Shown in pieces: positions 1 to 48,694 of a stretch of DNA of 64,000 nucleotides. A program made the translations under genes and the position numbers. How positions within the stretch are numbered: the first letter of the stretch is position 1; each line of letters starts with the position of its first letter. The notes beneath the pieces were generated by a model. That model worked only from the letters and a program-made list of their open reading frames with translations. It was not told the origin of the DNA and made no database searches. This DNA is from Rhizodiscina lignyota (taxonomy: Eukaryota), in contig ML978122.1 in NCBI GenBank assembly GCA_010015805.1, positions 2,328,453 to 2,392,452 on the forward strand, written 5' to 3'.

Positions 1-676
1 AACAGTTCAGTGGTAACACATCTCTTAGCTCGTCCTCGTGCGAGTGTCTTCACATAACAATCAAACCTACACTTCATGGTGACTAGTTTCAATACGAATC
101 CGTCGCGCTATCGAAAGTATCGAGGCAGAATCGCCTATGTGGGTTCGATGTTTCATCGGCGCTCCCAACAAAGCATCTTGGTCCGTATAGCCCCTGATCG
201 AGACGGGGCAGTGTTATGGCAGCGGATGCTATTAGCAAATGAGACTTGAAAGTCAGAGGTAGACATAAGGAGGATGAGCGAGAAAAGCGCCGCCAGAGCT
301 GTTCTCAACCACCGAGGCCCAATTGATTGGTATCTGGAGGAGAGATTGCGGCGCCACTGATCGAAGGAGCCGGCAACACCGGGCAGCGCTCCAGACGCGT
401 TATCGTCCTATCGAATACGCCCTCAGAGTGGCATTTATGACAAAGCGCCATATGCGGCACAATTAGGATCCGTCTCACCGATCTGGCAGTGTATATAAAG
501 GATGACTATTCCAGACTGCTCGTGCTCCTCTCATCGTTCTTGTTCTAACCCATCACCTTCTAAAGTCTTGTCGTAATCCAGCGCAGCGGACTCGGCGTAC
601 GAATGCAACTTACCATTGTCTAATTCATTTCATCCGCTTATAAAGCAGTGTATGAGCCAATTGGACATCAGAAGCA

Positions 677-2024
677 ATGGATGTGATCGATCTCACTCAG
701 GACGATCCCAAGCCGATGATGAATGAGGTGATCGATCTCACCCAGGACGATCCCAAGCCGGTGACGTGTGAGGTAATAGACCTTACGAGATATGATGCAG
801 ATGCATCTCAGGAACAAGACCAATCCGCTCCACGTGTCAGCTCCGAGCCTGCTGAGGGCCTCGGGATCTGTTTCTTTTGCGGCAATGGCTTAAGCAATCC
901 CAAGCACATTTCGAGCTATCGAGCATTTCGATTCGCCGTCTGTGACTGCGTAAGTGGAGTACCAAATTGATGAACCGCGATTTGAGCTTACACGGTGTCA
1001 GGAGATGCGCATAGCGTTAGTTAGCACGAAGAACGTACACTCAGTATACTATAGCACTCCTCCCCTTCAGACATCTCTCGCTTCAATCGATCCACGATAT
1101 TCGCCACTTCTTGCTCGCTGTGTGCAGGCCTGCAGTGGATGTACATTCGACGGCGCTCTGCCTGAGCTAGACGTAGAGCGCTTAATGTGTATGCACCATC
1201 GACAATGCAGCCTGCAAAGCCTGAGAACCATTCAACTTCGGAGCTCTGAGGAGGCTGGTGCGACTAGCCCGACATCAAGTTGCGAGGAGAGTGCCATGAA
1301 TGACAACATCGACGATGAGGCAAATGCTCCCGAGCAAAATTGGGTTGGTCTCGAGAGCGAGATCGACGACTTCGAGGGTTCCTCTAATGAACCTAAGGAT
1401 GAACTTGAAGATTGCGATCTGCCAGGCCTTCCCATACTCAAGCGAGCAGTCTTCAGGCTCCGAGGAGCAGACATTTCAGATGCAACGAATGTCGGCATGA
1501 AGAGGAAACGAAACGACGATATAGACGGCCATGTCAGCTGTCGTATATGTCTAGAACCTATCATTCGTTCCAACGGTCTCGCGGACGATCCTAAGGCTCT
1601 CAGGTGTGGCCACGAATTCCATTCCAGTTGCATTCGTTCATGGCTTTTAAAGGCATTGAGTTGCCCAGTTTGTCGTTGCGAACCGTTCCAGCAGGACGTA
1701 CAAGAAGCTGTCAAGAGTGAGCGGGAGCGATATCGAAACAACATCGAGGAATTCCGCAGTCTATGGGAGCAAGAGCAAGATATAGAAAACAAATGGGAGA
1801 ACGGATACAAGCGCCTAGAATCTCTCGAACAGCAGCAAGATGATCTCGAAGTTCAGCTCGAAGAGGCAAACAAATGGCTAGAATCTCTCAAACAGCGGCA
1901 GCATGATCTTGATACTGATTTTAAGGATTATCGGAACTGGGAAGACAGCCAAAACGATGCTTTGAGGGGTATTTGGAAGCGTAGACGTACCCTAATAGGT
2001 CCGGATGACGATGTAGACTTCTAA
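677..2024 (+). CDS. SIM-repeat + RING-H2 protein (SUMO-targeted ubiquitin ligase-like), at least 2 exons
   Basis: Three VIDLT+acidic motifs at N-terminus. Intron 950-1001 (GTAAGT..CTTAC..CAG) joins ORF 677 in frame to ORF 954. RING-H2 CRICLEP..CGHEFHSSC..W..CPVCR, then C-terminal coiled coil. Confidence 0.8.
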
Positions 2025-2282
2025 TTACCAGCTGCCGATCCGAAGAAGTTGGGACTGTTTATTGTTAATCAAGTTTCGTCTTTTCGATGTCGTGAAAAAT
2101 CTGCGTGTGGTCACGTGATGGAAACCGAGACTTCAGCGCCTGGGTCCAGGTGTTTGGTATCATGAGAACGAGTGCTGGGATCCTAGATCAAGAGCCCGCG
2201 CAGCTCTATGAATAGACTCTATTTAAGAACGGTCTTTTCAATTATTAATTTCTATCCTGCGCCTCCGATTAGCATAACTGAA

Positions 2283-3179
2283 ATGCTCGCTTTTATAGTC
2301 CTCCTATCTCAGCTTCTTTCCGCCTGCATTTGTCACTCATGGGTCGAACAGGTTCGTCTTATATCTGCACATAGCGGCGAATATTTTGGCCAACCTGGGT
2401 ATATGCGTGGCTACGTTCCTCGTACACCCAGCTTTCGAGACGATTTTAACCAGAATCTCCTGCCTCGCACATCCGGTCGTACGAGACTTGAGCTTACCGA
2501 CCCGATCTGCAGATCGTCCCAGAAAGAGGCAAATTATACGACCGCCTTTCCCAAGCTCGTTGCATCCCCGGGTGACTTTATCGCGCTACGATACCTCGAA
2601 AACGGACACGTCACACTGCCTCACATTCAGATTGGTAAGCCTGGTTCGGGCGGGACGATACTCGTATATGCAACAACTCGGCCAGCTGTCGATGAGACAA
2701 TCGGCGAGGTGCTAAGCTGGAGTTCAAACACATCACGAGACAGTCGCGGACGCCTTCTAACCGTGCAGAACTTTGATGATGGCCGCTGCTACCAGATCAA
2801 TAACTCCCCACTGCAACTAGCACGAGCTGAAGAAGTTCCAAACGTGCCCCCAGGCGCTGCTCCAGGAGCGCCAAATGAAGAGCTGTGGTGTGAGACCAAC
2901 GTGCAGATCCCAGTGGAAGTTCGTGGTGACATCACAGTATACTGGGTGTGGGAGTGGAGTACACTTCCAGCTCGCGACCTGGGTCTTCCTGAAGGGAAAG
3001 CGGAATGGTACACTAGTTGCCTAGACATTACTGTCATTGATCCCGTTCAGGCCAGTCTAACATCAAAGACATTCCCTAGTCTCCTCGTCCAAGACCCGCA
3101 TGCTAATGCAGTCACTAATTTTAAGGAAAGAGCAGCGAATACAACAGTGCCAGAAGGTCCGCCAGACCTTTGGATATAG
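2283..3179 (+). CDS. Secreted protein with N-terminal His (HSWVEQ family, LPMO-like features)
   Basis: Signal peptide MLAFIVLLSQLLSACIC then HSWVEQ. Second His in ENGHV. C-terminal YWVWEW and EWYTSCLDI motifs. Confidence 0.7.
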   Translation: MLAFIVLLSQLLSACICHSWVEQVRLISAHSGEYFGQPGYMRGYVPRTPSFRDDFNQNLLPRTSGRTRLELTDPICRSSQKEANYTTAFPKLVASPGDFIALRYLENGHVTLPHIQIGKPGSGGTILVYATTRPAVDETIGEVLSWSSNTSRDSRGRLLTVQNFDDGRCYQINNSPLQLARAEEVPNVPPGAAPGAPNEELWCETNVQIPVEVRGDITVYWVWEWSTLPARDLGLPEGKAEWYTSCLDITVIDPVQASLTSKTFPSLLVQDPHANAVTNFKERAANTTVPEGPPDLWI

Positions 3180-3398: not shown

Positions 3399-3798
3399 NN
3401 NNNNNNNNNNNNNNNNNNNNNNNNNNNNNNNNNNNNNNNNNNNNNNNNNNNNNNNNNNNNNNNNNNNNNNNNNNNNNNNNNNNNNNNNNNNNNNNNNNNN
3501 NNNNNNNNNNNNNNNNNNNNNNNNNNNNNNNNNNNNNNNNNNNNNNNNNNNNNNNNNNNNNNNNNNNNNNNNNNNNNNNNNNNNNNNNNNNNNNNNNNNN
3601 NNNNNNNNNNNNNNNNNNNNNNNNNNNNNNNNNNNNNNNNNNNNNNNNNNNNNNNNNNNNNNNNNNNNNNNNNNNNNNNNNNNNNNNNNNNNNNNNNNNN
3701 NNNNNNNNNNNNNNNNNNNNNNNNNNNNNNNNNNNNNNNNNNNNNNNNNNNNNNNNNNNNNNNNNNNNNNNNNNNNNNNNNNNNNNNNNNNNNNNNNN
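3399..3798. other. Assembly gap (N run), probably a collapsed tandem repeat
   Basis: About 400 N, flanked on the right by degenerate 15-bp units. Confidence 0.95.
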
Positions 3799-12416: not shown

Positions 12417-12775
12417 GTTTGGTCTTCAAATGGGCGGTGATGTGAATGATTGGACAAGATCTGTTGTAGTGGATTATTGATTTCCAACAATGCGGCCGCT
12501 GAAGTTATTTTATGTCATGCTTGAGAACTATTACAAGAACACGAGAGATTCGAAAGTACTATGAAATCTGAGAGTCACATTCCTAGAAGCTGCTCCTTGG
12601 ACTATGGATGGCCGGATAGTTTGTCGGCCTGGAACCTGGAATCGGGCTCTGGACTCGGGCTCTGAGAACCACTCTCAAATCCAATCCAGGCAAGCGATAA
12701 TTCGCTTATATAGGGCGTTTTTAGCAACCGGTTTCCCAAAGACTTTCGGCTCGATTAAAAATACGCTCCTTTTCC

Positions 12776-13204
12776 ATGTCACCACAACTGCACCTGCGAT
12801 ATGCCGATCCTGAGGCGTGCCCGCGATCAGCCCGGCGGCTGCCGCAAAGCCCATACCCTTGGACGTCGCAGCCTGCATCACCACTCTTTTCAGTCAAATT
12901 CTCTAAAATTAAAAAAGCCGTGCGCTTTAAAGACGAGGTAGAAATCCTCTTTCCTCCTACTCGGATCAACGAAAGGGCGTTAGCCGAGTCTGAAGTGGAT
13001 GCCATCGAAGCTTCTTGTTATAATCCGCGTTGTGGGAATCAATTGGAGTATTTAGTGCGCAGGCGCGGTTCTGGGCGAAAGAAATCATGGGAGCCGGCAT
13101 GTAATCTCGTAAATTGTGATGCCGCACTAGCCATCTTCCACTTGTGCAGCCCTACCAGTCCGGGCATGACTTGGGCTGCTTATAAGGTTCGGCGGGACAG
13201 GTGA
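12776..13204 (+). CDS. Small protein with degenerate chromodomain
   Basis: EVDAIEAS..LEYLVRRRGS..KSWEPACNLVNCDAALAIFH; aromatic-cage residues lost. Confidence 0.7.
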   Translation: MSPQLHLRYADPEACPRSARRLPQSPYPWTSQPASPLFSVKFSKIKKAVRFKDEVEILFPPTRINERALAESEVDAIEASCYNPRCGNQLEYLVRRRGSGRKKSWEPACNLVNCDAALAIFHLCSPTSPGMTWAAYKVRRDR

Positions 13205-14105
13205 GATTTACAAATGCTCCTAAGCGATAAGAGGCTGACCGTTTTATAAAGGCGTATGTAGAGCGTGCAAATGGCAGAAAGTGGTGAAAGAGCGACATGG
13301 AGCTGTAACGTCCATCCCTACGTCGCCGGACGCCCCCTGTTACCGGACAAAGTCCATTATTCGTACACATTAATTCTTCCCCTCGCGAGTCTATTAAGTT
13401 ATAGTCGGAATATAAATATTCTTTAGCTATTTATTAGTAGGTAACCGGTCTGCGATAAGAAAATTACCGCGGTCTTGATCATACTATTAATTATTCCATC
13501 GATGTCGTTAAGAGCCGCTCTAGTGAATTCCCCCTGCTCCATCACGACTATTAGCCTATCTGCGAATTCTGCGGCTATAGTACGAAGGTTTTATCAAGAG
13601 AGAATATCGCTATAACTTTTGAAGATAATAATTCATCGGAATTAAGTATTCCAAGTTTGACCGAGCGAAAGAAGGGGTTTGTTCGGCTTACAAGTCTTGG
13701 CATATGGATTTAGCTTGCTTACATTATGCTGTATTAATCTATGTATTGTTTTGACACTGGTTGTGGCGCATGCTAAGCCACTCTCGATTTGCCAATTCGC
13801 TTCGCCCGCATTCGCAGCTAGCTTTGCCGTTCATCACTGCACACCGAATACTGTATCATACACGGAGTCGAGACACAAACGGCCGATTCAGAATTGTCAA
13901 CACTAATTTGAACTTTTGGACTTCAATTCGTCAGTTCCGCTAGTTTCCAGTCCGCCGCCTCGCCTATGCCAGGTTACTGACGTCCCGTAGGAGCAGCAAA
14001 GCGTATACCGGCTTGATCCCTTCCACCCCTCTGGGCCGTATCCTACCATCGTAGCCGCCCTCCCCTCCTTCGGCGAATCTGAAGTCGATTTCATACAATG
14101 AGACA

Positions 14106-14996
14106 ATGAAGGATGTTACAATGCTCGGTCTCGCTCGACGTGCGCTAGGGTTTACTCGAAGTGTCGTGCTCTGGTTCACTGGAAATATTCGACGGCTTAC
14201 TGCGGCTGGAATAACCTGGTTTACTTATCGAGTCGACGCTCCTCTTGTAAAGTCTCTTGGAGACTTGCGGACGCTTTGCAACCACAACACGATCAATGAC
14301 GATGGCAATCTAGAGTTTTCGTACTCTACATTCTCCTTTGTCACCAAGGAACATACCGTCTATTGCGGCCGATCATTGATGAGGAAGCTTACTCTTGAAG
14401 TTGTCAATGAGAGCTTGAAACCGGTTGCCGATAAGGATGTGTATCCGGAAGCGCCGTCACATATAACAAGAGTTACGACGACAGAGAGCGGTTTCTTTAT
14501 CAAAGGGCCAGCGCTTACATTTTATGACGAACTCGAAGGCTCAAAGAAGATAGCACAGTCACTTCTACAAGAAGCTGAGATGCTAGAACGGATAGAGCAT
14601 AACCCCCACCCCAATCTTGTTCGGTATCACGGCTGCCAGGTCTATCGAGGTCGTATTGTAGGGCTGGTTTTGGAACGTTACCCTTGCACACTGGAGGAAC
14701 GTATGCGTAACGGTAGCGGCGATGTCGACTTGGAGTTAGGCTTTAATGGACTTAAGTCTGGAGTAATGCACCTCCATTCTCTTGGGCTTGCTCACAATGA
14801 CATTAAGGCAAGCAACATCATGGTTGGTGTGGACAACACATGGATTCTGGTAGATATGGGCTCTTGCCGGCCCTTCGGCGAAGATCTCATCATGGCAGGT
14901 AATCCACAATGGGAAACTTCATCACAACAGCATGACAAGGATGCACTGAGTGAACTCTGGATCTGGCTAACGGATCGCAAGCCAGCAGAGGTTTGA
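14106..14996 (+). CDS. Minimal protein kinase-like protein
   Basis: FFIKGP, E..LE....HPNLVRYHG, HNDIKASN, DMG; short C-lobe. Confidence 0.85.
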   Translation: MKDVTMLGLARRALGFTRSVVLWFTGNIRRLTAAGITWFTYRVDAPLVKSLGDLRTLCNHNTINDDGNLEFSYSTFSFVTKEHTVYCGRSLMRKLTLEVVNESLKPVADKDVYPEAPSHITRVTTTESGFFIKGPALTFYDELEGSKKIAQSLLQEAEMLERIEHNPHPNLVRYHGCQVYRGRIVGLVLERYPCTLEERMRNGSGDVDLELGFNGLKSGVMHLHSLGLAHNDIKASNIMVGVDNTWILVDMGSCRPFGEDLIMAGNPQWETSSQQHDKDALSELWIWLTDRKPAEV

Positions 14997-19436: not shown

Positions 19437-19754
19437 TATTCAGTCGACGAGTTTCCAGCCCTGAAAACTCCTAAATTTTGAGGGGGGGCTGGAACTGGAG
19501 GGGGTCTTCAGTCGTATCTGGAAATTTTTTCAGTTCAGGTGAAAATAATGCTAAGAGCGCGCCTATTTCTAAATAACTGGAGCTGCCAAGTGCTTCCAGT
19601 CCTAGCCCCGTTTCCCGCCCGTTTCTCACGGGTTTTACACCCCGGCTCCCCGTATCTGAAATCTGACCAAACACCCCCTAGATTCATGTTCAGGTTCCAC
19701 ACTTAATCACACTGATCTGGAGCCTGAAATTCACGGCTGATTTGCGACTGAACA
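19437..19754. mobile_element. MITE-like element, copy 1
   Basis: Ends TATTCAGTCG...CGACTGAACA; homologous in reverse orientation to 38379-38700. Confidence 0.65.
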
Positions 19755-19758
19755 TACC

Positions 19759-20879
19759 CTAAGTATACCATATGCTCCGCTTCGGGTTCATCTTCCAGCG
19801 CATGTAAGTTGCCATCGGCACAATGTCTAAAACAGGGTCGAAAATTGACCTTTTCGGAATTTTATCCAGGTAGTTATGCTGCTTACTTCTCTTAGTTTGC
19901 TGATCTAGGGATCCGAGAGTTCTAACTCACGATTTTGGCAAATTTTTGCTCCACAGGTCGAGAAAGGCTATAAAGATCATCAAGAAAGTCCATCAGGACT
20001 TTGTTGCCGCTCCAGCGCTCAGGGTTAATCAGGCCAAAGACGCGATTTGCACGTCGCTCCTGGCGGACAAACTCAGCTGTGTGATGTGGGCTAATTGTGC
20101 CGTTCATACAGTCGATGAGGAGACGGCCTAAACCTTCAAGGTCGGTGTTTGGAGCAGGATTGTCGAATGACTCCGCAAGTTCGAAGTCCGCTTTTAAAGC
20201 GAGTTTAGTCACTACATGACTGATAGAAAGCCAAGCTGCTTACCGATGACGATATTAGCGTATGAGCTTCCAAATCTCACCGATATTGCCGAAACTCTTT
20301 GGTGCACGATGTTCTGCGAATGGAGATACTTGATCGCATCAAAGACCTGGGAAAGGGCAGTGAGTTTAGGTCTGAATGAGAGCCAAGCTGGACTCATACA
20401 TCGTACGCAATTGCTTGAATATGCTCTGAAGACAGGGGCACACAAAGTGCGTCCGCAAGCCGAAGTCTGCAGTACTCCAAACCGAGGTAGATCGTATTAT
20501 CTGCCAGGAATGATTCTTGGACTTGGATGATGTGAGCATGTCGCAAGTTGCAGAGCGCCTTCAATTCCTTCCTCCCACGACTTGCGCCGCACTTTTTAAA
20601 CATTCTTTTCACAGCACCATGTTCCTTTGAACAGAGCTCATATTCTACCTTATCCTGGGTGAGAGTCCCCCAATACTCGTAACCCTCCCATAGTTGTTCT
20701 CCGCCAACCTCTCGGAGGTACTGCTCTTCACCATATTTCCTAGGCGTTTGCAGATCAATCGAGAACGAGCGTTCCTTACGTTTTAAGTTTATAGCGGTTG
20801 GGATGGGAATGGTGGGCAAGCTCGGGTCTTGAGGTCTTGAAAGGCGTTTATGTGCATCTCCGAGCTCCTTGGTCTCCAT
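19759..20879 (-). CDS. Protein kinase-like protein (probable pseudokinase), 4 exons
   Basis: MFKK..ELKALCNLRHAHIIQV..LGLEYC..|VFDAIKYLHSQNIVHQRVSAISV..|ADFE; HRD replaced by HQR. Divergent from the ferric reductase. Confidence 0.75.
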
Positions 20880-21123
20880 AGTTGTGGGGATGCAGTAGGG
20901 TGTGTTATGGGAACATGGAACGTTAAATTTGCAGACGAACCACGGCATAAAGAGGCTTCTGGACTCGAGAACACGGATCCCGGCCCCTGGGCTGGGTTCT
21001 TGGATCGCGACGTTGTGGTATCCAGGGGCCAAGATCTGAGGTTAAGGTTCGACAAAATGCTTAAAAGAAATCGCACGTCGCAGCATTGCCGGAGCCAAAG
21101 TTAGAAACAAAGCACAAATCGCC

Positions 21124-22942
21124 ATGGCTAACCAACTAGCCATCATGATCTACATCTGGTGCTTGAGCGGAACATTTGCTAGCTTTATCGTGTGGCGCAT
21201 CTGGTTGCTCTTCAGTGACCAAGCCCGCAACTGGGTTTTGGCGGCTGTGAGGAAGAGATTGGTCTACAGTTTGGTCGCACGAAGACTTAAGGGATCATCC
21301 AGTCTCAGTTACGCCCACCTGACTTTTCTGCTCTTATATGTAGCTGCCAACCTAATAGCTCTTTTGATCGGCCTCCCATCAAGGAAAGAGCTTAGCCAGA
21401 GGTCGGCATCTTTGTTTGTCATCAATTCTATTCCTCTGTACCTAGGAGGAAGGACGAGCATTTTTGTCGATCGTGTACTCCAGATACCGCTGAACACTTA
21501 CTATCTGGCACATCGGTGGCTCGGTCGAATCTGTGCGTCACTGGCTGCAATTCATGTAGCCGTCTCCCTTTTCCGGACAAATGGAAAACTCGATGGTATC
21601 GACTCAGCGGTATGGATTCCGTAGCTAGGTGAAAGGAGTGATATTGACAGCTTGCAGTTGATTTCTGTCCTCGGGTCCTTAGCATTGCTCTCATTACTAC
21701 CGGTGCGTCGCCGACTCTATGAGGTATTTCGGGTGAGCCATTCGTGGCTTGCAATCGCACTCATTGGCCTGATATGGGTCCACATCGGCATCCGCCAGCG
21801 CCTCCCTGCAATTTGTCTTGGGATTGCGTCAGGGATCTGGATTTTCCAACAGCTCTTTCGTATTTTCTCCATAGCAAAGCGCAACAGAGGCCTGCGCGCT
21901 AAGAATACGACAGACGTTCAATACATTGAGGAATCGAGCGGCCTGGCGCAGACCATGAGGCTTAAGATCAATTTGAGGCGCCCTTGGAAGATCCAGCCTG
22001 GCCAATATGTGTATCTCACTATACCTGCAGTCGGAAGGCTGGGCGCAGGGTACTTGCAGGCCCATCCATATTTCGTAGCTTGGGCGACTGAGGGCGCCAC
22101 CAATTCGATAACGCTGCTGATCGAAAGCCGCCGGGGTTTCAGTCGAGATCTTCTCCTGAGTCGACAGACAGCACTCAGTGCCCTTATCGAAGGCCCGTAC
22201 GGGACAGGACTCCAGTTGGATGAATATGACACTGTTTTGCTCATGGCCAATGGCATTGGCATCTGTCCGCTCTTATTAGCAGCGAAATGTCTTGTTGAGG
22301 CTCATTTAAACAAGACAGCTCGAGTACGACGCCTTACTCTAGTATGGCTCTTGGACAGTCCGGGTGAGGGTGAACACAGTTTGTTGGCGAACGCACGAGC
22401 TAATCCTCTACGCAGGCCAGGAGGCGTTGGCGATAGATTTCCTTCACCAGCTCCTTGAGCAGGACGCGGTCCGTCGCATTCTGACCGTGCACCTATACGT
22501 CGACAATCCAGCCCAGGGACGCCCCGTTGCCAAAGGACCAATTCGACTGTTCAGGGTGAATCAGACACTCGATATGTCATGGATGATTGAGACTGAGTGG
22601 AGAGCTGAGGCTGGAAACATGGCGATTGCAGGTGAGACCTCCGAATCTTGCGTAGGCATGCCGGCTGACCGAAATTTAGCATGTGGTCCACCGGACTTCG
22701 AATATGCCATTAGACAGGCTCTGAGGCGAACCGCATCCGACATCAGGCTCGTGAATCTGGGGTTCGAGCCCGACGCACATCGAGCATCAGCTAAGCTAGC
22801 AGAACGCTTTGTGGTGAGGGCAGCCGGTGCGCAACCCGGTCGTAAATCAGAGAAGGAGACTGAAGCAGTCGGTCGTCGCAATGGTGAGATTGAGATAATC
22901 GAGCGTCGAAATGAGAGGGAACTTGTTATTACAAACGTTTAG
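21124..22942 (+). CDS. Ferric reductase / NADPH-oxidase-like transmembrane protein (Starship FRE), multi-exon
   Basis: Heme His in HRWLG..IH and YEVFRVSH..H; FAD motif PGQYVYL..AHPY; IEGPYG; ANGIGI; CGP. Confidence 0.92.
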
Positions 22943-29306: not shown

Positions 29307-29948
29307 CTAGGCTTGGATGGGGATGTCGTGGTGGCGTTTCTACGTATAGGTGCCCCATAGATAGACAATGAGACTCCTGTCCTGTTGCATGATGATTTAA
29401 GCTCCCGTGATTTCGTGCGTAAGTGGTTAGGTCCAAATGGCCAACTGCATAAAGGATGTTCCATGGAGGTAGGCGCTTACATCGCTTACGATTCTAGCTT
29501 CCTGATTAGGCTACGTTCCCGCGATGCTGTGCCACATCTAGACGCCGCCCTCCTCGTCACACCTGCCACATCCCACCCGCATCTACGGTTCTACCCAAAG
29601 CCTCCAAAGTTAATTACCGAGTTACGTGTCGTCCCTGCCACGCTGACCGCAGCTCCTGTTAGGGTTTGCTGCATGCAACGCGCCTGCTATCACGTTCTCT
29701 TCGCTTCCACCTCCCGCGTAGCGACGATGCAGGTACACTATCGGTGTTAGCGCTGGAACCGCAGACGGTGGCGGTAACGAGTATGGGTCCTGGATTCTGT
29801 TGACTGCGCAAAGCGCTTCGCACCAAGTGATATTTTCTTTTTAACTAACACTGTATGTTTCCCAGACAAAATTGTATCATTTGCGATTCCTGTTTTCAGT
29901 TTATACATCACCATTGCGCACATTCGTGCGTCCTTTCTTCCTTTAACA

Positions 29949-30285
29949 ATGCACTCGGACTCTTGGCTCGACAAGCTCCGAGCAAAGAGACGGACTTTCC
30001 ATCGACGCCGACCGGCCGCTTTCAAAAAGATGAACGAACTTCACGTGTTAGGAGGGGTAGAGGTCTTCTTTCAAGTTCGTGGATATGGTAGCATATGGGA
30101 GTACAAGTCTTCAAATGAGACTCGTCCGCTCTCTCCCGAGCAGCTCGTTAGTCTTCTTTTGCGATCAATCGTCCTAATGATAACTTCTATAGAAAAACTC
30201 CTTTCCTCCTCCGATAGAGCTACGTCCAGAAATGTTCAAACTAAAGGGGTCAGAGCTCCTCCTCGATCTCGAACTCCGCGATTGA
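29949..30285 (+). CDS. Small MADS-box (SRF-like) protein, 2 exons
   Basis: KRRTFHRRRPAAFKKMNELHVLGGVEVFFQV..WEYKSS matches the MADS pattern; intron GTTAGT..TAG ending at 30192; overlaps the DUF3723 3' end. Confidence 0.7.
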
Positions 30286-33200
30286 CTGGGTTTGGAGTTG
30301 GACAACGGCATCAGATATTTCTTCGGAACCATTGGGCCTTGGCGTGTCGTCGCCGATCATCATCCTCGTTTCTGTCATTTGTTTGAGCTGCGAGTTTGCG
30401 TCTTCCTGTACCTCAGCCGCTATCATTAATGCAGTGCCTTGAAAAGCACCGTTGGCTGCCCACTGATCCATGACTGTTTTCTCTCCCGCAAAAATGATGT
30501 GGATCCGCTCCCATATCTCGATTAACTCCTCAAACTCGCCAGGGAATATCTTACCCGTCCAATCGCGGAATATAATGTGTTGTCCTTTTCGGAAAGCGTT
30601 TTCTAAAGATCGGCGTAGTTTCGGCGCAAAGTCCTCCAGATCATCCGTGATGAGCGGGACTGGAGGCTGCGCAGCATCGTAAACGAACCACATCGCCCAC
30701 CGACCACTGGAGGCAATCGATTTCTGAGTGCTCTTCAGAAATTCCAGTGTCGACTGACCCGACTGTGCGATGGTATTTACGAAGTACTTCGCACTGTCGA
30801 GGAGCTGTAGTTGTAGTTCCTGTTGGCTCAGTTGCATTCTACACATCTGTTCCATTGTTATGATGGCTGTCTCGTGAGCGCTTTGGGACGCTTGCTGACT
30901 CGCATTAATGACTCCCTGGGTGGTTTGCAGCGCTTGCTGGCCGATTTGAAAGACTTGCTCATTATTTTGTGCCGCGCGATTCATGAACTCTTCCTGCTTC
31001 TGTTCCTTCCAGTTACTCGCTTCGACCATCAGTTGTGTCTTCTGGATTTGTAATTGTAAGTCTCTCTGGTCAATGGCAACGTCCGCCTTTGCTTTGAGCA
31101 ATTCCAAATCTATTTGGAGTTGACGGATCTGTGCAGATTTCTCTGTATTTTCAAGGATAAGCTCCCTTTGCTTTACCGACAGCTCGTTCTTTTCGCCGTG
31201 GCCAGCTTCGAGCTGCGTGTTTAGTTCCACATTTTTCCTACGAAGGACATCTCTTTCTTTTCGTAGAGCTGAGTACTTCTTGGTAAGCTCGTCATTCTGT
31301 TGCTTTAGACGGTCTCTTTCGTCTTTTAACAGAGTATTGCTGTCACTGAGGGCCTTTTTCTGACGTTTCATGGCCTCTATATCGGCGCCTTCATCGAGTT
31401 TCCTTTTTCTCCCACTCTCGACAGTCTGCGTCAATTCGTTCAGTTTCACCGTCTGCTCCTCGAGCCTTTCTTTCAATTGCGTCTTTTCTGTTGCTAATGA
31501 TTGCAGCTCTTTCTCTTGATTCACATTTAGCCTGCGGAGGTTCTCACTTTCTTCCACCGCCTTCAGAGCTTTCGCTCCCATACTGCTTGCCTTTCCCTGC
31601 AGCTCTCGGTACGATGTCTTTTGGTGCTGAAGCTGCTCGTTAAGGTCTCTGTTCTCCGCTGCTAACGTGTCGCAGTACTGTTCTTGCTGCGGGTGCAACA
31701 CTTCGTCAACGCTCTGGCCTATGCGTTGTTCAATTATGGAAGCGGCATCTTCTAGAGGCTCAGTTGGACTCGAATCTGTTCGGCCTACAGGTCGAAGATC
31801 CTCAAGTGGCTGATCTGCGTCGAGCGCTGTGCCCAAGTAGGTTCTATACGTCGTATCCTCAGCTAAGAAAGTCCAAAAGATGTCTCTTTTCACGAAGAAC
31901 GGCGAAATGTCTCCGTCGGCTGAGTTGTCAGCCGCGCTGTCTGCAGCAAAGAAGCTTGGTATGAAGAGTTGCTTCTGGTCATACCAGTAGTCTTTCTCAA
32001 ATGGTCTTCCGTAGCGCCGTCCGCGCATCAGCCGTCCATCTATTCTCAAGCTCGGCGTTGCGTGTACTGCAGGTCCTACCTTAGCAGTGCATGAAATGTC
32101 CAATTTTGGCCGTGGCAAGTTGAACCCCAACTTCACAGCGAGATTGTAGAGTTCTAATTCGACGTGGGGAGTGGCAGCGGCGTGCATGGCTTGGTGCTTT
32201 CTATCCTCTTGACGGGGGTTGAGCTTGCCTAGTTGGGGAAAGTTGCGAAGACAGAACACCCACAGAGAGACCCAAGCCACCCATCGATCCGATTCAAATG
32301 TTTGCTGTCCGTATATTGCAAAACACCCGTCGCCAACTTCGATGAGACGATGTGCAGGCGGCCGATATCGGGCATAAAAACTCTGTCTGAGGGAGACTCG
32401 GTCCAGGTATCGGCGACCCCCTAGAAGATTCTGCAATGGTACGGTACAAAGCTCAAGAACCTTCTGGTTCTCAAAGAAGATCCTGAGACTCGGTATGAGG
32501 CAGGGCTTCGCACAGAGCCGCTCTAAGAGCTGTCTACGTACTTCTAGATCATCAATTGTCCGAAATATGCTTTTAGATGCCATCAGCTGCTGAAGTTGCA
32601 AGCGGTCAACTTTAGAGACCGCAGGAGCGAGCTGCTCGAGCTGGTCGACTGTTTCAACGTCCACGTCTTCAGGAGCGATGAGGGTTCCGATTACGTTGTC
32701 TTTCCAATAATTTCGTACATGGGTGAGGCCATTAACAAGCTCCTATATCGCATTTAGCTTGCTGCCGAAGATTCATCGATGCTCAACGAATACCTCATCG
32801 CATTTCAAGGAGTGATGCCTGTGGATCTGTCCGAGCATTATCCGCGGCCATAGCCCTGGAATGTCTACCAAGTCCAAAAGCAAATCTCGAGTCGCTTCAT
32901 CTCGCAGCAGTTGCCTCAGGTCATTCTCCTTAGTCTGTGACTTTTCTGACAATCGGCCCCACCACTTTTGTTCTTCGTCGACCTTCAGATCCCGCCTGTA
33001 GCGCAGGATTTTATATAATATGTCTCCATCGCTCGGCGGTTGTTCGTCGGCAGCATTCTCCAGAAAGCCGATAGCGATACGTTCAGGCAGATCTAATTCG
33101 GCCTTTCAGCTACGTCACTGGCCTTGGGGCCACGTGTCATACCTTGAAATAATCGAACCGTCCACCATTGCTCGTCATCCGCCGGATTCAGATGCTGTCT

Positions 33201-33545: not shown

Positions 33546-33845
33546 CTCCAAGAGGAGAGAAAGAAGTCAGCATCACAAGTCTCACCGAGGCCCAACCCCA
33601 TCTTCCCGCGTTGAAAACCCTCTGAGATTCACTCCACAATCCGGGATCTCGGAACGGGCCGAGGCGTCCAGATCTCAGATTGTGGCGCGCAGATCACAGC
33701 GCCTCAGGAGTCAGATCCAAGGATCCAGATCTCACGGCTCGGACCCGAGCAGCGCACTAAGAACGACTAGCATAATAAACCGTTCAAGACCCGATCGATC
33801 GGATGCAATAATCTCCTGAGCGTCGCCTCTCTAATATCCGTCGCT

Positions 33846-36800
33846 ATGGCTCTCACTTTCCCGTGGATGACGATAACGCACGAACTCGCCCAGACTCGCG
33901 TGACGAGGTATCCGCACGCTTTCCGCGCAGTGCAGACAAGATCACGTGACTTACCCCAGTTCGTCGTTCTGGTTGGGAAACAATCCAAGTCATCTATGCT
34001 CCGTACAATATTAGACACTCCAAATGATCCACTCCTGCGAGGCACGCACGGTCAGATCTATATCCGCGCTGATACAAGATCGAATCGACCTCTTTACTAC
34101 ATAGACTGTGAGGCTAATCTCTTCAAGCCGAAGCACGCAGACTCGGCAAAGGGCGTTGGCCCGTCCGACGTTACGAAAGTGAACTGGCTGAGTACGCAAC
34201 GGCTGTCAACTTGCTCATTTGGTAATCTCCTCTGTGCCGACGTACTCGCTCCTTTGTCGAGCTTAGTGTGCTATTTTGCCGCTGACCTTGGAGGCCTGCG
34301 TGGCGTTGCAAGACTGCTCGCCGAGCAGCTGCTGCATTCCAAAGGTACTGACCTACCGCCGGAAGCATCAGCAGCTATCCTTATTATTACAGACACCAGA
34401 TCAGCCACATTTGAGCAGGCTGTGGCGGAGTCAAGGATGGTGGAGTTGGTGAAGCATTTTATTGCTGCTGAAGCCCCTATTGAGCCGCAGCTAGCCGCGA
34501 AGGTCGATAGGCTGTGTAAGTCCTTGCGTGTGATCGGTTTCCATAACAGTCTCAACCTCCAGAAGCGTTGCAAAACATTCCGGAGCATCGTGTCAGCAGT
34601 ATCCGACGCGCAGGCCACTTCGCGCTCATTGTTATGTCTGGCATTTTCCGCGAGGCACGCAGAGGCCCTTTTCACTTCTCTCCTTCATCATTTTAGTACC
34701 CAGAACCAGGATCGGTTTTCTTTCGTAGATGCTTCAAGGCCGGATGGATTCAGCATCAGCCGTTTCCCTCAGCAGCTCCAAAAGTTACTCCAGCTGATGC
34801 CTTCAGAAGCTTACCTCTGGCATTCGGTCGTACCTTATGTGGCCAATGCTTTGCTTCTGGCGTCCTTTCCTCCAGGAAGCCACTGTGAGTGGATACTTGT
34901 ATATTTATTCATGGCCAACCTAATTTTGGACCTAGATTTCTCGGCAGCGACGTTGTTCCGACATCTCTATTACGAGGTGTGTCGGGATGCAATTCAAAAC
35001 TATACTCATCGCATTGATATTCAAGAGAAATTCCTGTCCGATCTCGAACATGAGCTGGAACGACAATTGAGCGAACTACAGTCCCAACAGGGACGCACTG
35101 CACTGCACTATACTAAGACTCTGCGCCACCTCAACAGCGAAATCCCGATCCCTAAAAGCCACGAGCTCTGTTCTTGTCTAATGCGCATGCCAGAGCGCGA
35201 TTTAAGTTGTGGGCACTCGTTCTGTGAAACCTGTTTGCAACTAATCGCCCAGAAATGCAACATGCGGAGATATCATTACACCATTACCGGGTGTCCGGCC
35301 TGCGGTGAAGAACAGAAAGAGCCTTGTTTCAGATTGTTGCCGCCAACAGCCGGGGTTAGGTTGCTGAGCATCGACGGTGGGGGCGTTCGGGGGGTGATCC
35401 CGCTCATGGTCCTGAGCAGCGTAGAAAAAAGTCTCTCGTATTTACAATGCCCTCTGCGAGATTATTTCGATCTTATTTTGGGATCTTCAGCTGGTAAGTG
35501 GAATGACCGTGTGCAGTGTCTTCCAAAACTGATGAGATCGCAGGAGGCGTAGTCTCCATAGGGATCGGGGTCAAGCAATGGTCTACCGATGATTGCCTAG
35601 GCAACTTCGAGAAGCTCGTCTACAATCTCTTCTCTCGAAAGTCCAGCAGTTACGCATCGTTCCACCTCGTCCGAGACTTCGTGCAACTGTGTCTAAGCGA
35701 TTGCCAGTACGATTCTGAACTAGTCAACACCGCATTTAGTAATACCTTCGGCCGCGGTCTTTCTCTTTTTAGCACCCTGAGCACTTGTTCAAAGGTTGGG
35801 GTCACTACGACTAGGGTTCGGGATGCTATGCCTTGTTTGATCACAAACTATAATGGAACCGACCCGCGGCAGGATGTTGGTGAGTGTTCGAGCCATATCC
35901 GGATTTGTGTTTGCTGATGCAGCCAGGCTATCATATCGTCCGTGCAGAGAAACCCCAGGAGGACATACAGGTTGCCGATGCGTCAGTATCATGCCCCTGT
36001 TCCTGACGTACACTAACAATCGGACAGGGCAATCTGCACCTCCGCGGCACCCTGGTAGAGTAGCAGTTCATATATCCATGGGTTTAGAAAGGCTGATTTG
36101 TTGCCAGGTTCTTCAAACCGAAAGCAGTTCCTAGGCTAGACACATACGAGGACGGGAGCCTTCAGGAAAACAATCCTATAGCGATTGCACTTTCTGAATT
36201 TAGGACCATTTGGCCCAACCGGGGAGAACATCCTGACATTGGGCTCTCTCTTGGGACAGGGTGGGCGAGGAACGGGGCACCCCGAGGCGGCAGCGACTTA
36301 CCCGTCAGGGACAGAATGCCTACTCGCCTGGCAAGGAATTTCAAGCAAAGCCTGAATGGACAGAAGATCTGGCGGAGGTTCTTTAACACCTTGCCCAACA
36401 GTGCCCGGCATCGGTATCATCGCTTGGAGCCTATGTTCGGTAAGGAGGAGCCGCGCATAGACGAGCTGACGGCTCTCGAAGATTTAAAATCGTTTATTGA
36501 AGACTGGATGAGCTCAAACGAGTGGGTACAAGAGGTAAGATTGGTCCTCGACGGTCTGATTGCCTCGATATTCTACTTCGAGCTTGACGCCCTTCCTGAA
36601 TTCATCGATGGCCGCTATCACGTCTCTGGCCAGATACTCTGCCGACTTAATTTGTCGCGGCTAGGTCAGCAAAATCTGTACGAAATGCTAAGAAGTACAA
36701 AGTCCTACTTCTTAGTAAACGGAGACCCTAAATCCTGTCTTGAGGCCAAATTGCGAAATCGTCTTCCGTTTCGGAAACGCATCGAGTTCTCCTGTGAAGA

Positions 36801-36984
36801 CGGAGCGGTCGCGATATCTATTGGGGGAATCACTTCACGCTCATGTTCGATAAGCGGTATGCCTAGGGCTATAGACGACCTTATCCGTTGTCAGAAGCTT
36901 GATGCCCCTTTCGGCACAGTAGAACACGACACTATGGAAAAGCCACTTCCTTCGATACCTACGAAGAGAAAGGTCTGTGGATGA
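33846..36984 (+). CDS. Patatin-like phospholipase with RING-like zinc finger (Starship PLP), multi-exon
   Basis: C..CGHSFCETC..CPAC; LLSIDGGGVRG; FDLILGSSAG nucleophile motif; DGSLQENNP; IASIFYFEL. Divergent from DUF3723. Confidence 0.92.
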
Positions 36985-37096: not shown

Positions 37097-38042
37097 TTAA
37101 AGAAGTTGTCCAGCTGCCTCCTCGTTTCCGGGCGTTGCAGAACGCTTCGAGTAATATTCAGCAAGTAGGTCATTGCAGTTGTCCACATTTTCGGCGGGCT
37201 CCCATGTGCGCTCGTCTGACTCCCAATGGACAAAATAATACAAGGCCGTCCGGCTCCCTTCTATACGAATGTCCGAATCAAGAATAGCCCGTACACCATA
37301 AGCCGGGGGGGAGTCAGCTCTACACGTTCGCCGCAAGCGACCCTGACGCTTTGCTCTCTGATCATAGGGTTTCTGTCTCTGTGCGTGCCTGTTGTTGCTG
37401 GGTTTTGGTAGATGCTTCAGCCGTGGGTTCGCAGAAGCAACAATTTCTGATCCGTCATCCTGCAACGAATCATGTTGTGGTATTGGAGACGCGTGGACTG
37501 GGGCGTCATGGACGCTTAGTGAGTACGACTCGAGGCCCTCTTGCCATGAATGTAGTGACGGTGAAGGTGCGATTGCGCATAAGAAATCCTCAATACCCTC
37601 AATATACGGCGAAGAGATGAAGACTGGACTCGAGCTCTGTGTTCGGCTTCCTTCGGCGTTTGAGATGTTCGATGAGACTGCTGGCCGGAAGGAATAGTCA
37701 GAGCTGTCACCCATAGATGCGCTAGGAGGCTGTGTAGACGTAGGCGTATTTTGCGGTAATTTGGGTATCTCTGTGGCGTGGCAGACTGTGACGGTTGGAT
37801 CGCAGTGACGCTCCTCTTCCCTGTGTGCAGAGGTCGAAATGGCGACTGTCGTAGGGGTTGGAGCTGTCGGCTGGAAATGAACATTTTGAGGCCCCCCAAG
37901 AATATAACATTTGAAATCTTCGATCGCAACTCTTGCACTTCGTGATGGTACGTTCTCTGGAACAGGCCAGCCCACGTAATACCACGTCTGGCCACCCTCG
38001 TAGGTAATTTCATGGGAAACGAATTGAATTTGATTAGACATG
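37097..38042 (-). CDS. Chromodomain protein (C-terminal chromo)
   Basis: YGVRAILDS..YYFVHWESDERTWEPAENVDNCNDLLAEYY; likely start MSNQIQ. Confidence 0.85.
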
Positions 38043-38378
38043 GCTAGGTAATGAATTGTCAAGGCCTTTAACTTTAACATGTAGATTATAGCTAATCGCA
38101 ATATATAGTCCTCGCAATGGAAAAAGTACCTCCAGAGGACGATTTTACTGTCCGACGCTAAGCCTTTTTTTCGCCCAGCATAACCGCTGCAGAAGGCCTG
38201 TCGCCGGCGCCTATCTTCTCTACGAATTACTCTTCGGTAGTGTTCGATGTTCATAAACGCTGTCGGGCTCTCTTACTAGCTAGAGACAGTGCCTATATCC
38301 GTGTACCTGTATCCGTACACCTGGTACTCCGTAGGCGCCTTGAACTTGGCGCCCTAGCTTTGACGCTAACCCTTTTTC

Positions 38379-38700
38379 TGTTCAGTCCGCAAGTTTCCAG
38401 CTCCAGGTTTTCAGCTCCAGGTTTTAAGCTCCAGGATAACGTATAATTTAGCGCGTGTACCTGAAATCTGAAATATAGGGGGGTATTTAGCTAGACTTCA
38501 GGTGCAGGGAGCCGGGCGTTAAAAACCGTGAGAAACGGGCTGGCCAGTACTGGAGAATAGCCTTCTAGCCGGTTCCAGCTCTAGGTTTTACTTTATTTAG
38601 AAACCAGGCGCGCTCTTAGTACTGTACAGGTCTTCAGACCCAGCTCTAGCGCAAGCTCGAAGTTTAGGGCTTTATAGGGCTAGAAACTTGAGACTGAACA
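38379..38700. mobile_element. MITE-like element, copy 2 (inverted)
   Basis: TGTTCAGTC...GACTGAACA ends; shared blocks ccgtgagaaacgggc and ttatttagaaa..aggcgcgctcttag. Confidence 0.65.
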
Positions 38701-39772: not shown

Positions 39773-41470
39773 TTACACACGCAAATGCGCTCCGTCCAGA
39801 GTCTCCTCAATTTTAAGACAATCAATAAGTCCACCGGCAATCCGTAAACTGCCTGTTGCAAAGACTTTCACAATCTGGCCCTTCCCAACCCGTAGCACAA
39901 TTTCCATGGCTTCTTCAATTGTTCGCCTTACATGCACTACCGTATTCTGGTCAAGATCCTTCCTCCAGAAGGCTGCATTTTCGTTTTGACCAACGAGACG
40001 CTCTATTCGCCGAATATCCTTGTTTAGGTCAACAAGGTCTGCGGTTCAGTTAGATACGTTCAGAGGTGTTACCGGAGCCAGATCCTTACCTAACTGATTT
40101 ACGTCAGAGGCTCGGACGGCATTCGTGCAAAATATGGCATGGGAGAAGTGTAGATCGTACTTATACACAACGCGGTGGATAGTACGGAGCAATTGACGAA
40201 CATCACGGACCGATTCCTGGTTGAAGATCAGTACGACCTGATACGAGTCCCTGAAAAGTGTAAGCGACGTGCCATTAGTATATTTAAAAGAGGTCTTCAC
40301 CAAGCTTCTTTTTCCTTGACCAGCTGTGCAAACCACTCGGAAGAGACTTCAAGGGCACCTTCATTATGGCCTCCGTCGATACACCAAGTGATGTCTCCTT
40401 GGACAAGTTTATGGAAACGGCCTGGCAACTGCGCATGTTCCGCAATGCGAACTAACTCTTCTTCATCTAGCTCTAAGCTTCGCCCAAAGCTGCTCAAGAA
40501 CCTCTCGACACTAATGATACCAGCCGAAGCATTTCGAAGTTGTATTTCGTTCATCGAAGAGCCTTGAAGAGCTTTATGAATACCAACAAAGTCTAGGTGG
40601 ACGTCCTTCTCCTCAGCTCTTTGTCTAAGTGTATCTTCAACAACTTTCTTTTGCTGTACCGAGATCGCAGGACATTGCGGTTTAAAAATCCCAGACTTGT
40701 GTTGTGATATTTCTTCAAGAGTGTCTCCCAAAGATATTGTGTGATCCCTACTAATCTCAGAGATCACCGTCACCTTTGGCTGGTCAAAGACGTTAGTGGA
40801 GTCGAACTTTCCGCCGATTCCGGTCTCAATAATAGCGGCGTCCACGCCCACACTGTCGAAAAGATGTAATGCTACTAAGGTCAAAAACCGCGCGTAGGAG
40901 GGGAACTCAGCGAGGGGGACCTCAGACGCCTCGAGCTTCTGGTAGACTTCGAAGAAGCATTTCGCGAACATGTCTTCGCTGATGATCGTTCCATTAACCC
41001 TGAACCGTTCACAAACTGAGCTGAGATGAGGTGAAGTATATAAGCCGATAGCAGTGGGCCATCCATATATATCGCGGTAGCAATTCAACAAGTGATTCGC
41101 AACAGCGCATACACTTCCTTTGCCATTCGTCCCAGCACAGTGTATAGCGTTCATACGATCCAAGTGCGATGGCTATAAGGAGGTTAGAAATCGAGAGAGC
41201 ATATAGTAAGCTAAAATACCGTGAGCCCGCAAGCATGATGAAGCAAATATTTGAAATCGTCCAAGTTCTTCCTGCGCCGTTGGTATTTTCCCGCCCTATC
41301 CGCATCCGATCGCAGCTTCTGTAACGAGGAGAATCCTGTTTGAAGCTGATTCAGGAGTACCAGGGCATCCTATGAGTTATGAGTAAACCATCTTACAACG
41401 TTGCGTGGGTACAGACTTTATAGCTACGTTGTGATCCCGACAATGGGGTAAGGAGGGGAGCTCGAAACAT
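39773..41470 (-). CDS. Folylpolyglutamate synthase (FolC/Met7 family), multi-exon
   Basis: IHCAGTNGKGS, GLYTSPHL..ERF, ETGIGGKFDSTN, LPGRF, IDGGHN, VFATGSL. Confidence 0.93.
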
Positions 41471-43167: not shown

Positions 43168-43968
43168 ATAACTATCTCGACTTTTCGTGTTATTGCTATT
43201 TCTACTTAAGGCTAAGGTCAGGCGCCGCGCATTGCTCCTTCATTGTTACCCAGTCCATGATTGTGGGTGTTGGGCACGTGACTGATTGGAGGGATTTGCG
43301 CAACGGTCAATGTGTCCCTCCTGTGCTACTAATGGAATTGTTTTCTTCGCTGCTTAATTCCATAAAGACACTCTCCCCCTATTTGATGATTTGATTAGAA
43401 GGCAGTGTATAAGGCGTTGTGCGTTCGAAGGTAGGCCCAGTGGAGGAGAAGATAGCGGCCGGAGTGCGTACAGAGAGCGTTGACGTAGTTCGCTGATAGC
43501 GGCGCCGAAATTTGAAAGTCCAGCCAAGCCTGTGGCTGGTAGACATGTGACTTCAGCCATCTGGGCGAGAACGGCTAGATGTAAAAAGACCTCCGCTGAC
43601 TAATATTCATCGCGACAACAAATCTCTGCTACGAATCTATTATCTTGAGTCTGAAGCCGTTTAATCATCAAATTTTCTATACCTTTTTGGCCGTTATCAG
43701 CAGCTCACCAACGGCACCAAATACGAGTATTTAAGATACCTGCGCTGCGGTTAAGGTTTTTCCCCTCTCTCCAAGCTACTCAGCTGCTTTGCTTTGTGGA
43801 TCGCTAACGTCGCCCCAGCCAACAGGTCTATCGAGTCACTATCGTACGAACGGCCTCCCAGTCGACGGCTAATACGAGTGAACGTCGGAACAACGTTTCA
43901 TCTACGACCGCCCACACGTCCGATGAAAAGCACTGAAGTCCTGTACTGCCGAAAACCGCGTCTCTCCT

Positions 43969-44712
43969 ATGCCCTCTATCTCGCAACAAACTATTATATC
44001 CGTTGGTATCTTCGCTGTTGTACATCGGCTCAATGACACAACGGTGAGAAAGTTGCCTCGAACCGATGATCTAGAAAACCTAGCTGGAAACATCCAAGCC
44101 ACGCGTAATGAGGCATACATCTATACCCTACTCGGAGATGACCCGCTTATTGCGAATTGTCTATCGCGCAGTAAAACCGAGGACTATGTCGATCTCCAAT
44201 ATTATGCGAACGGCACGCTTCCAGACTACATTGACAAGAATAAAAACAATATATCAGACAAACTCCGGGCACAATGGAGCTGGCAGGTTATTAAAGCGGT
44301 AGCGCGAATTCACGAGCTTGGGATTATTCACGGAGATCTTGCCTTGAGGCAGTATTTGCTTGATGACAGTCTTAACGCTCGCCTGAGCGACTTTTGCGGC
44401 TCCGGATATCCTGGACAGAGGGCACTGGCTATCGAAGGCTCTAGTCACTGCTTACCAAGAGACTTTGATCGACCTAGCACAACAGAATCAGACCTGTTTG
44501 CACTCGGGTCTACCCTCTATGAGCTTTGGTCTGGCGAAACTCCCTTCTGCACGCTCAACGATCAGGAGATTGAGACACGTTATATGCAAGCGGACTTCGC
44601 TGATGTTACAGGCATTCACTGCGGTCATATCATCCTTTGTTGTTGGAGGCGAGAGTTCTCATCTGCAGACGAAGTGCTTTCCCAGTACAACAAATTGTCA
44701 TTAGACCTTTAA
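43969..44712 (+). CDS. Minimal protein kinase
   Basis: SVGIFAVV, VRKLP, HGDLALRQYLL, DFCGS, SDLFALGSTLYE. Confidence 0.9.
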   Translation: MPSISQQTIISVGIFAVVHRLNDTTVRKLPRTDDLENLAGNIQATRNEAYIYTLLGDDPLIANCLSRSKTEDYVDLQYYANGTLPDYIDKNKNNISDKLRAQWSWQVIKAVARIHELGIIHGDLALRQYLLDDSLNARLSDFCGSGYPGQRALAIEGSSHCLPRDFDRPSTTESDLFALGSTLYELWSGETPFCTLNDQEIETRYMQADFADVTGIHCGHIILCCWRREFSSADEVLSQYNKLSLDL

Positions 44713-48638: not shown

Positions 48639-48694
48639 TGACGCTTTGACACAGGGAACAAAAACTAGTTTTTGTTCCCTGTGTCAAAGCGTCA
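48639..48694. repeat. Perfect 56-bp palindrome
   Basis: tgacgctttgacacagggaacaaaaact|agtttttgttccctgtgtcaaagcgtca. Confidence 0.97.

Follow-up and report, generated by a model that had tools for sequence, protein, structure and literature searches.

The locus described here raises the question of whether a mobile element of Rhizodiscina lignyota carries a STUbL (SUMO-targeted ubiquitin ligase) of its own, that is, a gene which would join several SIM-like motifs to a RING-H2 domain across an intron. The window, by which we mean the whole stretch of DNA analysed, is 64,000 nt long (G000:C2:2328453-2392452) and belongs to the 33.4-Mb assembly of this fungus. The features concerned are listed in Table 1.

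Table 1. Features of the SIM/RING gene and of the element around it (window positions unless a contig is named).
Feature	Position	Strand	Remark
TATA-like box	492-499	+	~180 nt upstream of the start codon; seen in the sequence, putative function
Exon 1	677-949	+	91 codons, with three SIM-like motifs, an acidic spacer and a Cys cluster (C65, C68, C89, C91)
SIM-like motif 1, VIDLT (VIDLTQDD)	683-697	+	codons 3-7, 45-nt unit 1
SIM-like motif 2, VIDLT (VIDLTQDD)	728-742	+	codons 18-22, 45-nt unit 2
SIM-like motif 3, VIDLT (VIDLTRYD)	773-787	+	codons 33-37
Predicted GT-AG intron, 52 nt	950-1001	+	prediction only; final 6 nt form the left terminus of the inserted repeat
Dispersed ~140-bp solo-LTR-like repeat, truncated copy	996-1125	+	gives the acceptor and 41 codons
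Exon 2	1002-2024	+	340 codons plus stop
Second Cys/His cluster C135, C138, C154, H156, H157, C160	1131-1208	+	possible decayed zinc finger
KRKR, nuclear-localisation-like	1500-1511	+	just before the RING; putative function
RING-H2 (C3H2C3), aa 271-315	1539-1673	+	C-C-C-H-H-C-C-C complete
Long coiled-coil-like helix	1680-1994	+	internal 63-nt duplication 1806-1868 / 1869-1931
Ferric reductase / NOX-like gene	21046-22942	+	PF01794, PF08022; Starship auxiliary family
DUF3723 gene (part)	30250-32742	-	E 6e-47; Starship auxiliary family
Patatin-like phospholipase with RING-like finger	33771-36984	+	PF01734 E 2.7e-5, under cut-off on that exon alone; Starship auxiliary family
Captain: DUF3435 tyrosine recombinase, several exons	58768-61051	-	first gene inside the right end; putative start
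RIP-like AT-rich stretch inside the captain end	61250-62400	.	GC 0.24-0.36, TpA/ApT up to 2.6
Right end: ~32-bp terminal inverted repeat + 6-bp palindrome	62468-62505	-	
Partner (far) end	G000:C2:2313733-2313770 = L011:5281-5318		14.7 kb left of window base 1

The gene model and its protein parts

Joining 677-949 to 1002-2024 gave a protein of 431 aa that is, letter for letter, the database protein P0003. The source label of P0003 is hypothetical protein of Rhizodiscina lignyota, and its cluster has 1 member on 1 contig. It is probably the gene model of this very DNA rather than independent support. The intron starts with GTAAGT and ends with CAG, and a branch-like GCTTAC lies about 11 nt before the acceptor; these signals were judged against the fungal splice consensus. 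Splicing at 950/1001 is predicted from them together with the one gene model. When exon 1 was read unspliced, a stop was met at codon 98, which leaves a 97-aa SIM peptide. A purine was found at -3 of the ATG. The contigs of run X1 span the stretch unbroken, showing neither a difference nor a joint, and they may be the source of this DNA.

The next gene downstream (window 2187-3179, +) encodes a DUF7492 protein (E 5e-79) whose N-terminus is hydrophobic and which matches LPMO_10 faintly. Some 1.4 kb downstream of the SIM/RING gene and still in the element, 400 N at window 3399-3798 mark either an assembly gap or a withheld stretch.

The three VIDLT motifs of exon 1 have an exact 15-codon spacing. 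A local duplication of the first two, which the preliminary description had suspected, was borne out by our analysis, units 1 and 2 being a 45-nt tandem duplication with 39/45 positions identical. They differ by one silent change in the core and by five changes outside it, all of which replace residues. Unit 3 keeps the same register and agrees with the other two only around the core: motif 3 differs from each other copy at five bases of the 15-nt core, all of them third-position and silent, and unit 3 has 19 base differences in its other ten codons. In simulation, five randomly placed changes spared VIDLT in 1.6e-4 to 3.5e-4 of trials (400,000 trials per setting, with a test picked after the motifs had been seen and with homology of unit 3 assumed). 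Because the five differences of motif 3 are all silent (simulated P ~0.0002-0.0003), VIDLT would have been kept as protein, which indicates past, not present, selection on the core peptide.

Across the 33.4-Mb genome, paired [VI][VI]DLT-coding motifs about 12-42 nt apart were found at this locus only, as 2 overlapping matches, and the reversed-pattern control gave 0. A chance motif cluster was rejected on the grounds of this genome-wide uniqueness and of the empty control. In a single-sequence model, which is weak evidence, aa 1-120 had no confident fold. Complex prediction of aa 1-48 with the host SUMO P0154 (aa 18-97) scored 0.01 against a mark of 0.34 in a run without controls, and was used neither way; a host SUMO gene, that for P0154, is present. 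Excerpts of PMC4083429 describe SIM2 and SIM3 of RNF4 as IVDLT and VVDLT with acidic neighbours, and as dominating SUMO-chain binding; that repeated SIMs favour poly-SUMO is stated in an excerpt of PMC12751080.

The RING-H2 matched Pfam zf-RING_2 at E 1.5e-9, above the cut-off, with all eight ligands present. I273, W305, P313 and R316 were also present in this region and occupy what are presumably the usual E2-contact positions. The RING is internal and is followed by about 100 residues of predicted helix, a layout that the preliminary description did not contain. In the single-sequence fold the mean pLDDT was 47 and the RING was unfolded; the tail helix (aa 318-422, pLDDT mostly >85) was the sole confident part. 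Of the differences counted over 14 codons of the 63-nt tail duplication, 3 are silent and 6 replacing, which gives no clear constraint signal. A second nuclear-localisation-like motif, KRRR, was seen at aa 417. The RINGs of RNF4, Hrd1, AMFR and Arkadia were among the top solved matches, as any RING would give.

Cys clusters were found on both sides of the repeat insert. Against a RING profile of 213 domains they scored 2.4-4.0 bits, compared with up to 9.4 for shuffles. A second RING split by the insert is unsupported by these scores, which lie within the shuffles, and is kept as a lead only.

The repeat at the splice acceptor

A repeat at 996-1125, which contributes to the acceptor and to exon 2, was likewise absent from the preliminary description. 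Our DNA search of the organism's own genome matched it at nine other places, and a search with one repeat copy gave 23 matches; these 23 and two from the first search made up the 25 copies that were compared pairwise. They are 122-151 bp long, and most start with TGTCAG or a close variant, many with a complement-like terminus at the end. A 5-bp flank duplication was perfect in 8/25 copies and in 5/600 swapped flanks; at 4/5 or better it was found in 18 of the 25, compared with 62/600 swapped-flank controls. Solo LTRs have TG...CA ends, a short inverted terminus and a 5-bp target-site duplication, and the family fits a solo LTR, with a MITE or a TRIM as possible alternatives. In the search for a parent retrotransposon, RVT_2 gave no match in the genome and its control likewise matched nowhere; three RVT_1 matches were found, none beside the 25 copies by coordinates. 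Three copies (L038, L040 and L041) are 98.5-99.2% identical with perfect 5-bp flank duplications and form a young subfamily, and several copies have TA in place of CA at the end, which is what RIP or deamination would produce.

The window copy shares 75-85% identity with the other copies, and the nearest (84.7%) only bounds the age of the insertion. It has neither a right end nor a target-site duplication; 14 nt beyond the point where the repeat should end, the sequence agrees with the left flank at 4/5 positions, which was discarded as chance-level. Its left terminus is the modelled acceptor. The 41 codons that it keeps open in exon 2 are weak evidence, with 12/72 frames open in the other 24 copies. 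Between 985 and 1300 there are 27 AG sites, 12 in frame and 15 out of frame, and three of the 12 are CAG acceptors (1001, 1070 and 1127). All 12 in-frame AGs keep the SIMs and the RING joined; downstream of the branch-like site, the first YAG is that at 1001.

The preliminary description had read a SIM array and a RING-H2 in frame across the intron. The motifs, the frame and the complete RING stand, and the product equals P0003; the junction is less secure than first stated because its acceptor is supplied by an inserted repeat. Since that repeat has lost its right end, the present gene structure may be damaged.

From 1128 on, however, the frame contains 0 stops, versus 17 and 19 in the other two frames. 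The 389 non-repeat codons have no stop, and the eight ligands and three SIMs are intact. In a neutral-drift simulation (3000 trials each, no indels), such an outcome was obtained in 14% of trials at 2% divergence, in 0.8% at 5% and in 0.03% at 7.5%. The gene is not RIP-like (TpA/ApT 0.54). We regard it as a real, apparently intact orphan with STUbL architecture.

The surrounding Starship and the host relatives

Whether the gene lies in a Starship had been left open by the preliminary description. Our self-comparison of 134 kb around the window revealed a 38-bp inverted match (37/38 identical, E 7e-10) that bounds an element of 77,225 bp, these bounds being drawn from one genome. The outer 6 bp of the ends are palindromic and can therefore also be read as a direct repeat. 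One further copy of the 38-bp end was found in the genome, with a control of 0. The SIM/RING gene starts 15.4 kb inside the far end, so that a position outside the element was rejected.

Starships are described in the accessible part of PMC11162782 as having a DUF3435 captain first, cargo downstream, a direct repeat with TIR, and the auxiliaries DUF3723, FRE, PLP and NLR. Three DUF3435 pieces were found here at 58.8-60.6 kb on the minus strand, with no ORF of at least 120 aa between 60584 and the end at 62505. DUF3723, FRE and PLP, i.e. three of the four auxiliary families, are present, and no NLR domain was found among 49 ORFs scanned in and beside the element. Among the rows listed in the tables of PMC11162782, as far as these were accessible, R. 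lignyota has at least 2 captain genes and 0 bounded elements. A weak DUF3435 locus, the second in the genome (G000:C2:1464181-1465035, -), was seen at E ~2e-4, under the cut-off. Rfam at gathering scores gave 0 matches in 104 kb, with no 5S rDNA or tRNA target.

At each end of the element there is about 1.1 kb of RIP-like DNA, and the element may be immobile because both ends look RIP-mutated. Near the start of G000:C1 there is a decayed RIP-like copy of the captain end including the terminal repeat (L060; 86-92% over ~620 bp), which could account for RIP at the captain end; its flank resembles the far-end flank, a hint that the target preference may be longer. Left of the far end core-looking genes resume, namely a GMP-synthase-like gene and a zinc-cluster factor (translations judged by eye). 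Beyond the captain end, a HET-domain gene and an HNH_2-like gene were found (window 63797 onward and L016:1-4752), so that the region next to the element looks accessory.

Other contents of the element were also noted. Chromodomain ORFs are present at L011:7029-8312 (+, E 0.003), window 12725-13204 (+, E 0.0095) and window 37097-38272 (-, E 4.5e-9), the first two under the cut-off; the three chromodomain-like ORFs, two of them weak, give a hint of a chromatin theme. Cargo ORFs include three that are protein-kinase-like (window 14055-14996, 20394-21041 and 43927-44712) and several that are host-like: a Mur-ligase-domain ORF, folylpolyglutamate-synthase-like by eye (window 40297-41172, -), a BCS1-like AAA ATPase (49007-50338, -) and a MADS-box (SRF-TF) ORF (29778-30386, +). 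Inside the far end there is a Zn2Cys6 factor (L011:8747-9754, -) that contains a degenerate tandem repeat. Inverted pairs were seen at 45379-45497 / 56024-56159 (78%, 136 columns) and 19614-19678 / 38479-38543 (80%, 65), and long palindromes at window 48639-48694 (perfect over 56 bp) and 53031-53090 (97% over 60 bp). Just outside the right end, at window 62560-62870, a short degenerate repeated unit was recognised by eye.

Short RING-HC patterns were found at 10 distinct loci in the genome. One of these loci, L064 (G000:C1), combines VIDLT and three IIDLS motifs with a variant RING at its terminus, which we take to be the Slx5/Rfp layout; another, L069 (G000:C2, 943-946 kb; P0177), has FIDLT and a terminal RING-HC, presumably the Slx8 layout. 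Both were typed by architecture alone. P0003 aligned to L069 at E 0.002 over 56 columns and to L064 at E 0.11, with a similar SIM pair (48% over 23 aa). The present gene, which the preliminary description had wished to see separated from the host Slx8 orthologue, thus stands apart from the Slx5/Rfp-type and Slx8-type genes, which on architecture lie elsewhere. A core orthologue was rejected on the grounds that the gene is inside the element, that L064 and L069 are elsewhere and that they align poorly. Membership of the Slx8/Slx5/Rfp/RNF4 family fails on RING type, on RING position and on homology beyond the RING core.

The nearest host relative was P0036 on G000:C7, which matched aa 230-379 at 31% over 151 columns (E 2e-14), the alignment covering the pre-RING helix, the RING and the start of the tail. 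P0036 has a RING-H2 plus helix and no SIM-like motif, and its N-terminal 400 aa are unrelated. At L018:4903-9175, P0036, a divergent neighbour with RING-like Cys and a transporter-like gene stand side by side, P0036 itself being a one-member cluster. Homologues of exon 2 were sought among 2602 candidates and those of aa 1-265 (at E 10) among 1533, with near lengths covered in both, and P0003 alone was found in each. In the best 150 of 2018 matches in a 50% library, all 149 others aligned best on the RING, and one of these 149 had a SIM-like motif (a single one). A metagenome scan gave 12 pattern matches and 0 confirmed. The atlas returned generic RING clusters only, under 0.9, for the whole protein and nothing usable for aa 1-170; its giant-virus rows were rejected as a sign of transfer. 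Across the protein, metagenome and atlas searches, no relative outside the RING half and no full-length homologue was found.

Candidate function and competing explanations

We consider it an evenly balanced proposition that the gene is Starship cargo and encodes a STUbL-like ligase, put together by shuffling, that works or worked until recently. Splicing would join the SIMs to the RING through the acceptor donated by the inserted repeat, and the protein product would go to the nucleus. The three motifs would bind poly- or multi-SUMOylated proteins by avidity and the RING would recruit a host E2, by which the bound SUMOylated proteins would be ubiquitylated; the helix probably dimerises or binds a partner, and the ubiquitylated targets would pass to the proteasome or to Cdc48. 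The C-terminal half would come from a SIM-less RING-H2-plus-helix gene of the G000:C7 kind, and the SIM array would have grown by local 45-nt duplication, so that the STUbL architecture would have been reached independently of Slx5, Slx8 and RNF4. For the target, the leading guesses are the SUMOylated recombinase of the element itself or chromatin factors present on it. The further suggestion, drawn by analogy, that the transposon's own STUbL strips SUMO-dependent silencing or repair factors or turns over the captain is in our view doubtful; such a self-serving STUbL would combine a RING-H2 of host type with a SIM array amplified in tandem and an exonised repeat. The step in which it degrades SUMOylated silencing or repair factors, as the preliminary description had put it, is offered by analogy alone.

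The state of the repeat leaves a real, if lesser, possibility that a once-functional SIM+RING gene is now decaying cargo and that the annotated splice is an in-silico rescue. The repeat would then have hit an old intron/exon boundary, a deletion would have taken its right end, and the gene would be silent or would give the 97-aa SIM peptide only. The truncated window copy without target-site duplication, compared with the 18 of 25 at 4/5 or better, agrees with this, as do the orphan status of the gene, the RIP-like ends of the element, and the Cys clusters that flank the insert and resemble a split finger, though their scores are within shuffles. The uninterrupted non-repeat codons with all ligands and SIMs intact argue against it, together with the gene's own TpA/ApT ratio and the retained TATA-like box and purine at -3. 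We think it quite unlikely that this is a real RING-H2 ligase in which the SIMs serve for location or networking and the substrate is chosen by the middle region or the helix. Here the SIMs would anchor the protein at nuclear sites rich in SUMO or on several SUMOylated partners, and the substrate need not be SUMOylated. In keeping with this, SIMs are absent from the closest relative of the RING half, and some 230 residues separate the SIMs from the RING; several distinct SUMOylated proteins may be bound by repeated SIMs, according to an excerpt of PMC12751080, and targeting by ICP0 is described in the accessible part of PMC3174244 as both SUMO-dependent and SUMO-independent. The three close, even VIDLT motifs with acidic flanks, however, match the chain-binding pair of RNF4.

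That the gene is a host core STUbL (Slx8 or Slx5/Rfp) in misplaced or captured form, or that it is a core gene lying outside the element, is very unlikely. The SIM pair of L064 is similar, but only at the E value given above, and the depth of the gene inside the element speaks against it. L064 and L069 are moreover terminal HC-type RINGs that align poorly, and the best match is a SIM-less RING-H2.

The STUbL-like reading also has to be set against known systems. RNF4 and Slx8 have a terminal HC-type RING, and the RING of Arkadia/RNF111 is a RING-H2. The cellular STUbLs RNF4, Slx5-Slx8 and Rfp1,2-Slx8 likewise have close N-terminal [VI][VI]DLT motifs, acidic neighbours and a RING, according to excerpts of PMC4083429 and PMC11986368. 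Unlike in these, the RING-H2 here is internal, with the helix of about 100 residues after it, and is encoded by a mobile element; no similarity to them was found outside the RING and the motifs. Arkadia/RNF111 likewise combines clustered SUMO-binding motifs with a RING (PMC12751080, in part), which matched at E 4.7e-6. It differs in being an animal protein with a SUMO1-specific SOB motif, and the match is limited to the RING, so that orthology is not claimed.

The targets of the viral STUbLs HSV-1 ICP0 and VZV ORF61 are PML bodies, which to our knowledge fungi lack. These two proteins likewise bring a RING and SIMs from a genetic parasite, three SIMs in ORF61, and they counter SUMO-linked repression, as stated in the accessible portions of PMC3174244 and 10.64898/2026.03.11.710994. 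In ORF61 the RING is N-terminal and the main SIM is C-terminal, and the viral likeness is one of functional analogy, not homology. The Flp recombinase of the 2-micron plasmid is restrained by SUMOylation and by turnover driven by Slx5-Slx8 (PMC6594588, in excerpt). The captain is also a tyrosine recombinase; the STUbL in the 2-micron case, however, is host-encoded. The captain pieces scanned gave no sign of SUMOylation beyond one FKSE motif, which is chance-level. The ICP0/ORF61 and Flp precedents suggest why an element would carry a STUbL.

SUMO-related Starship cargo is not unheard of, being already on record by catalogue labels in the accessible part of PMC11162782. Among the rows listed there, at least 7 cargo genes are Ris1-like SNF2-RING, several are RING and one is SUMO-like, and none is labelled Slx8; these labels are automatic, and the comparison is by label, not by SIM content. 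Our literature search, with subscription papers mostly outside it, found none on Starship cargo with RING plus SUMO or on a transposon-encoded STUbL; one review, known from a literature listing, joins SUMO, Starships and transposition in fungi. New here are the Starship bounds, the host STUbL-type genes elsewhere, the silent-site constraint and the repeat-derived acceptor, all for a single orphan in one genome.

The function of most Starship cargo, and how these elements cope with host genome defence, are open questions. Links to SUMO are so far known in viruses and in the control that the host exerts on the 2-micron plasmid. A transposon STUbL, if true, would be a concrete and cheap-to-test link to the SUMO pathway. 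It would be a fungal counterpart of herpesvirus ICP0 and ORF61, or would turn over the captain in the way that Flp is turned over by Slx5-Slx8 of the host. The gene also illustrates in compact form how a new gene is assembled, by motif duplication, domain fusion and a repeat-donated splice site that is predicted from the sequence.
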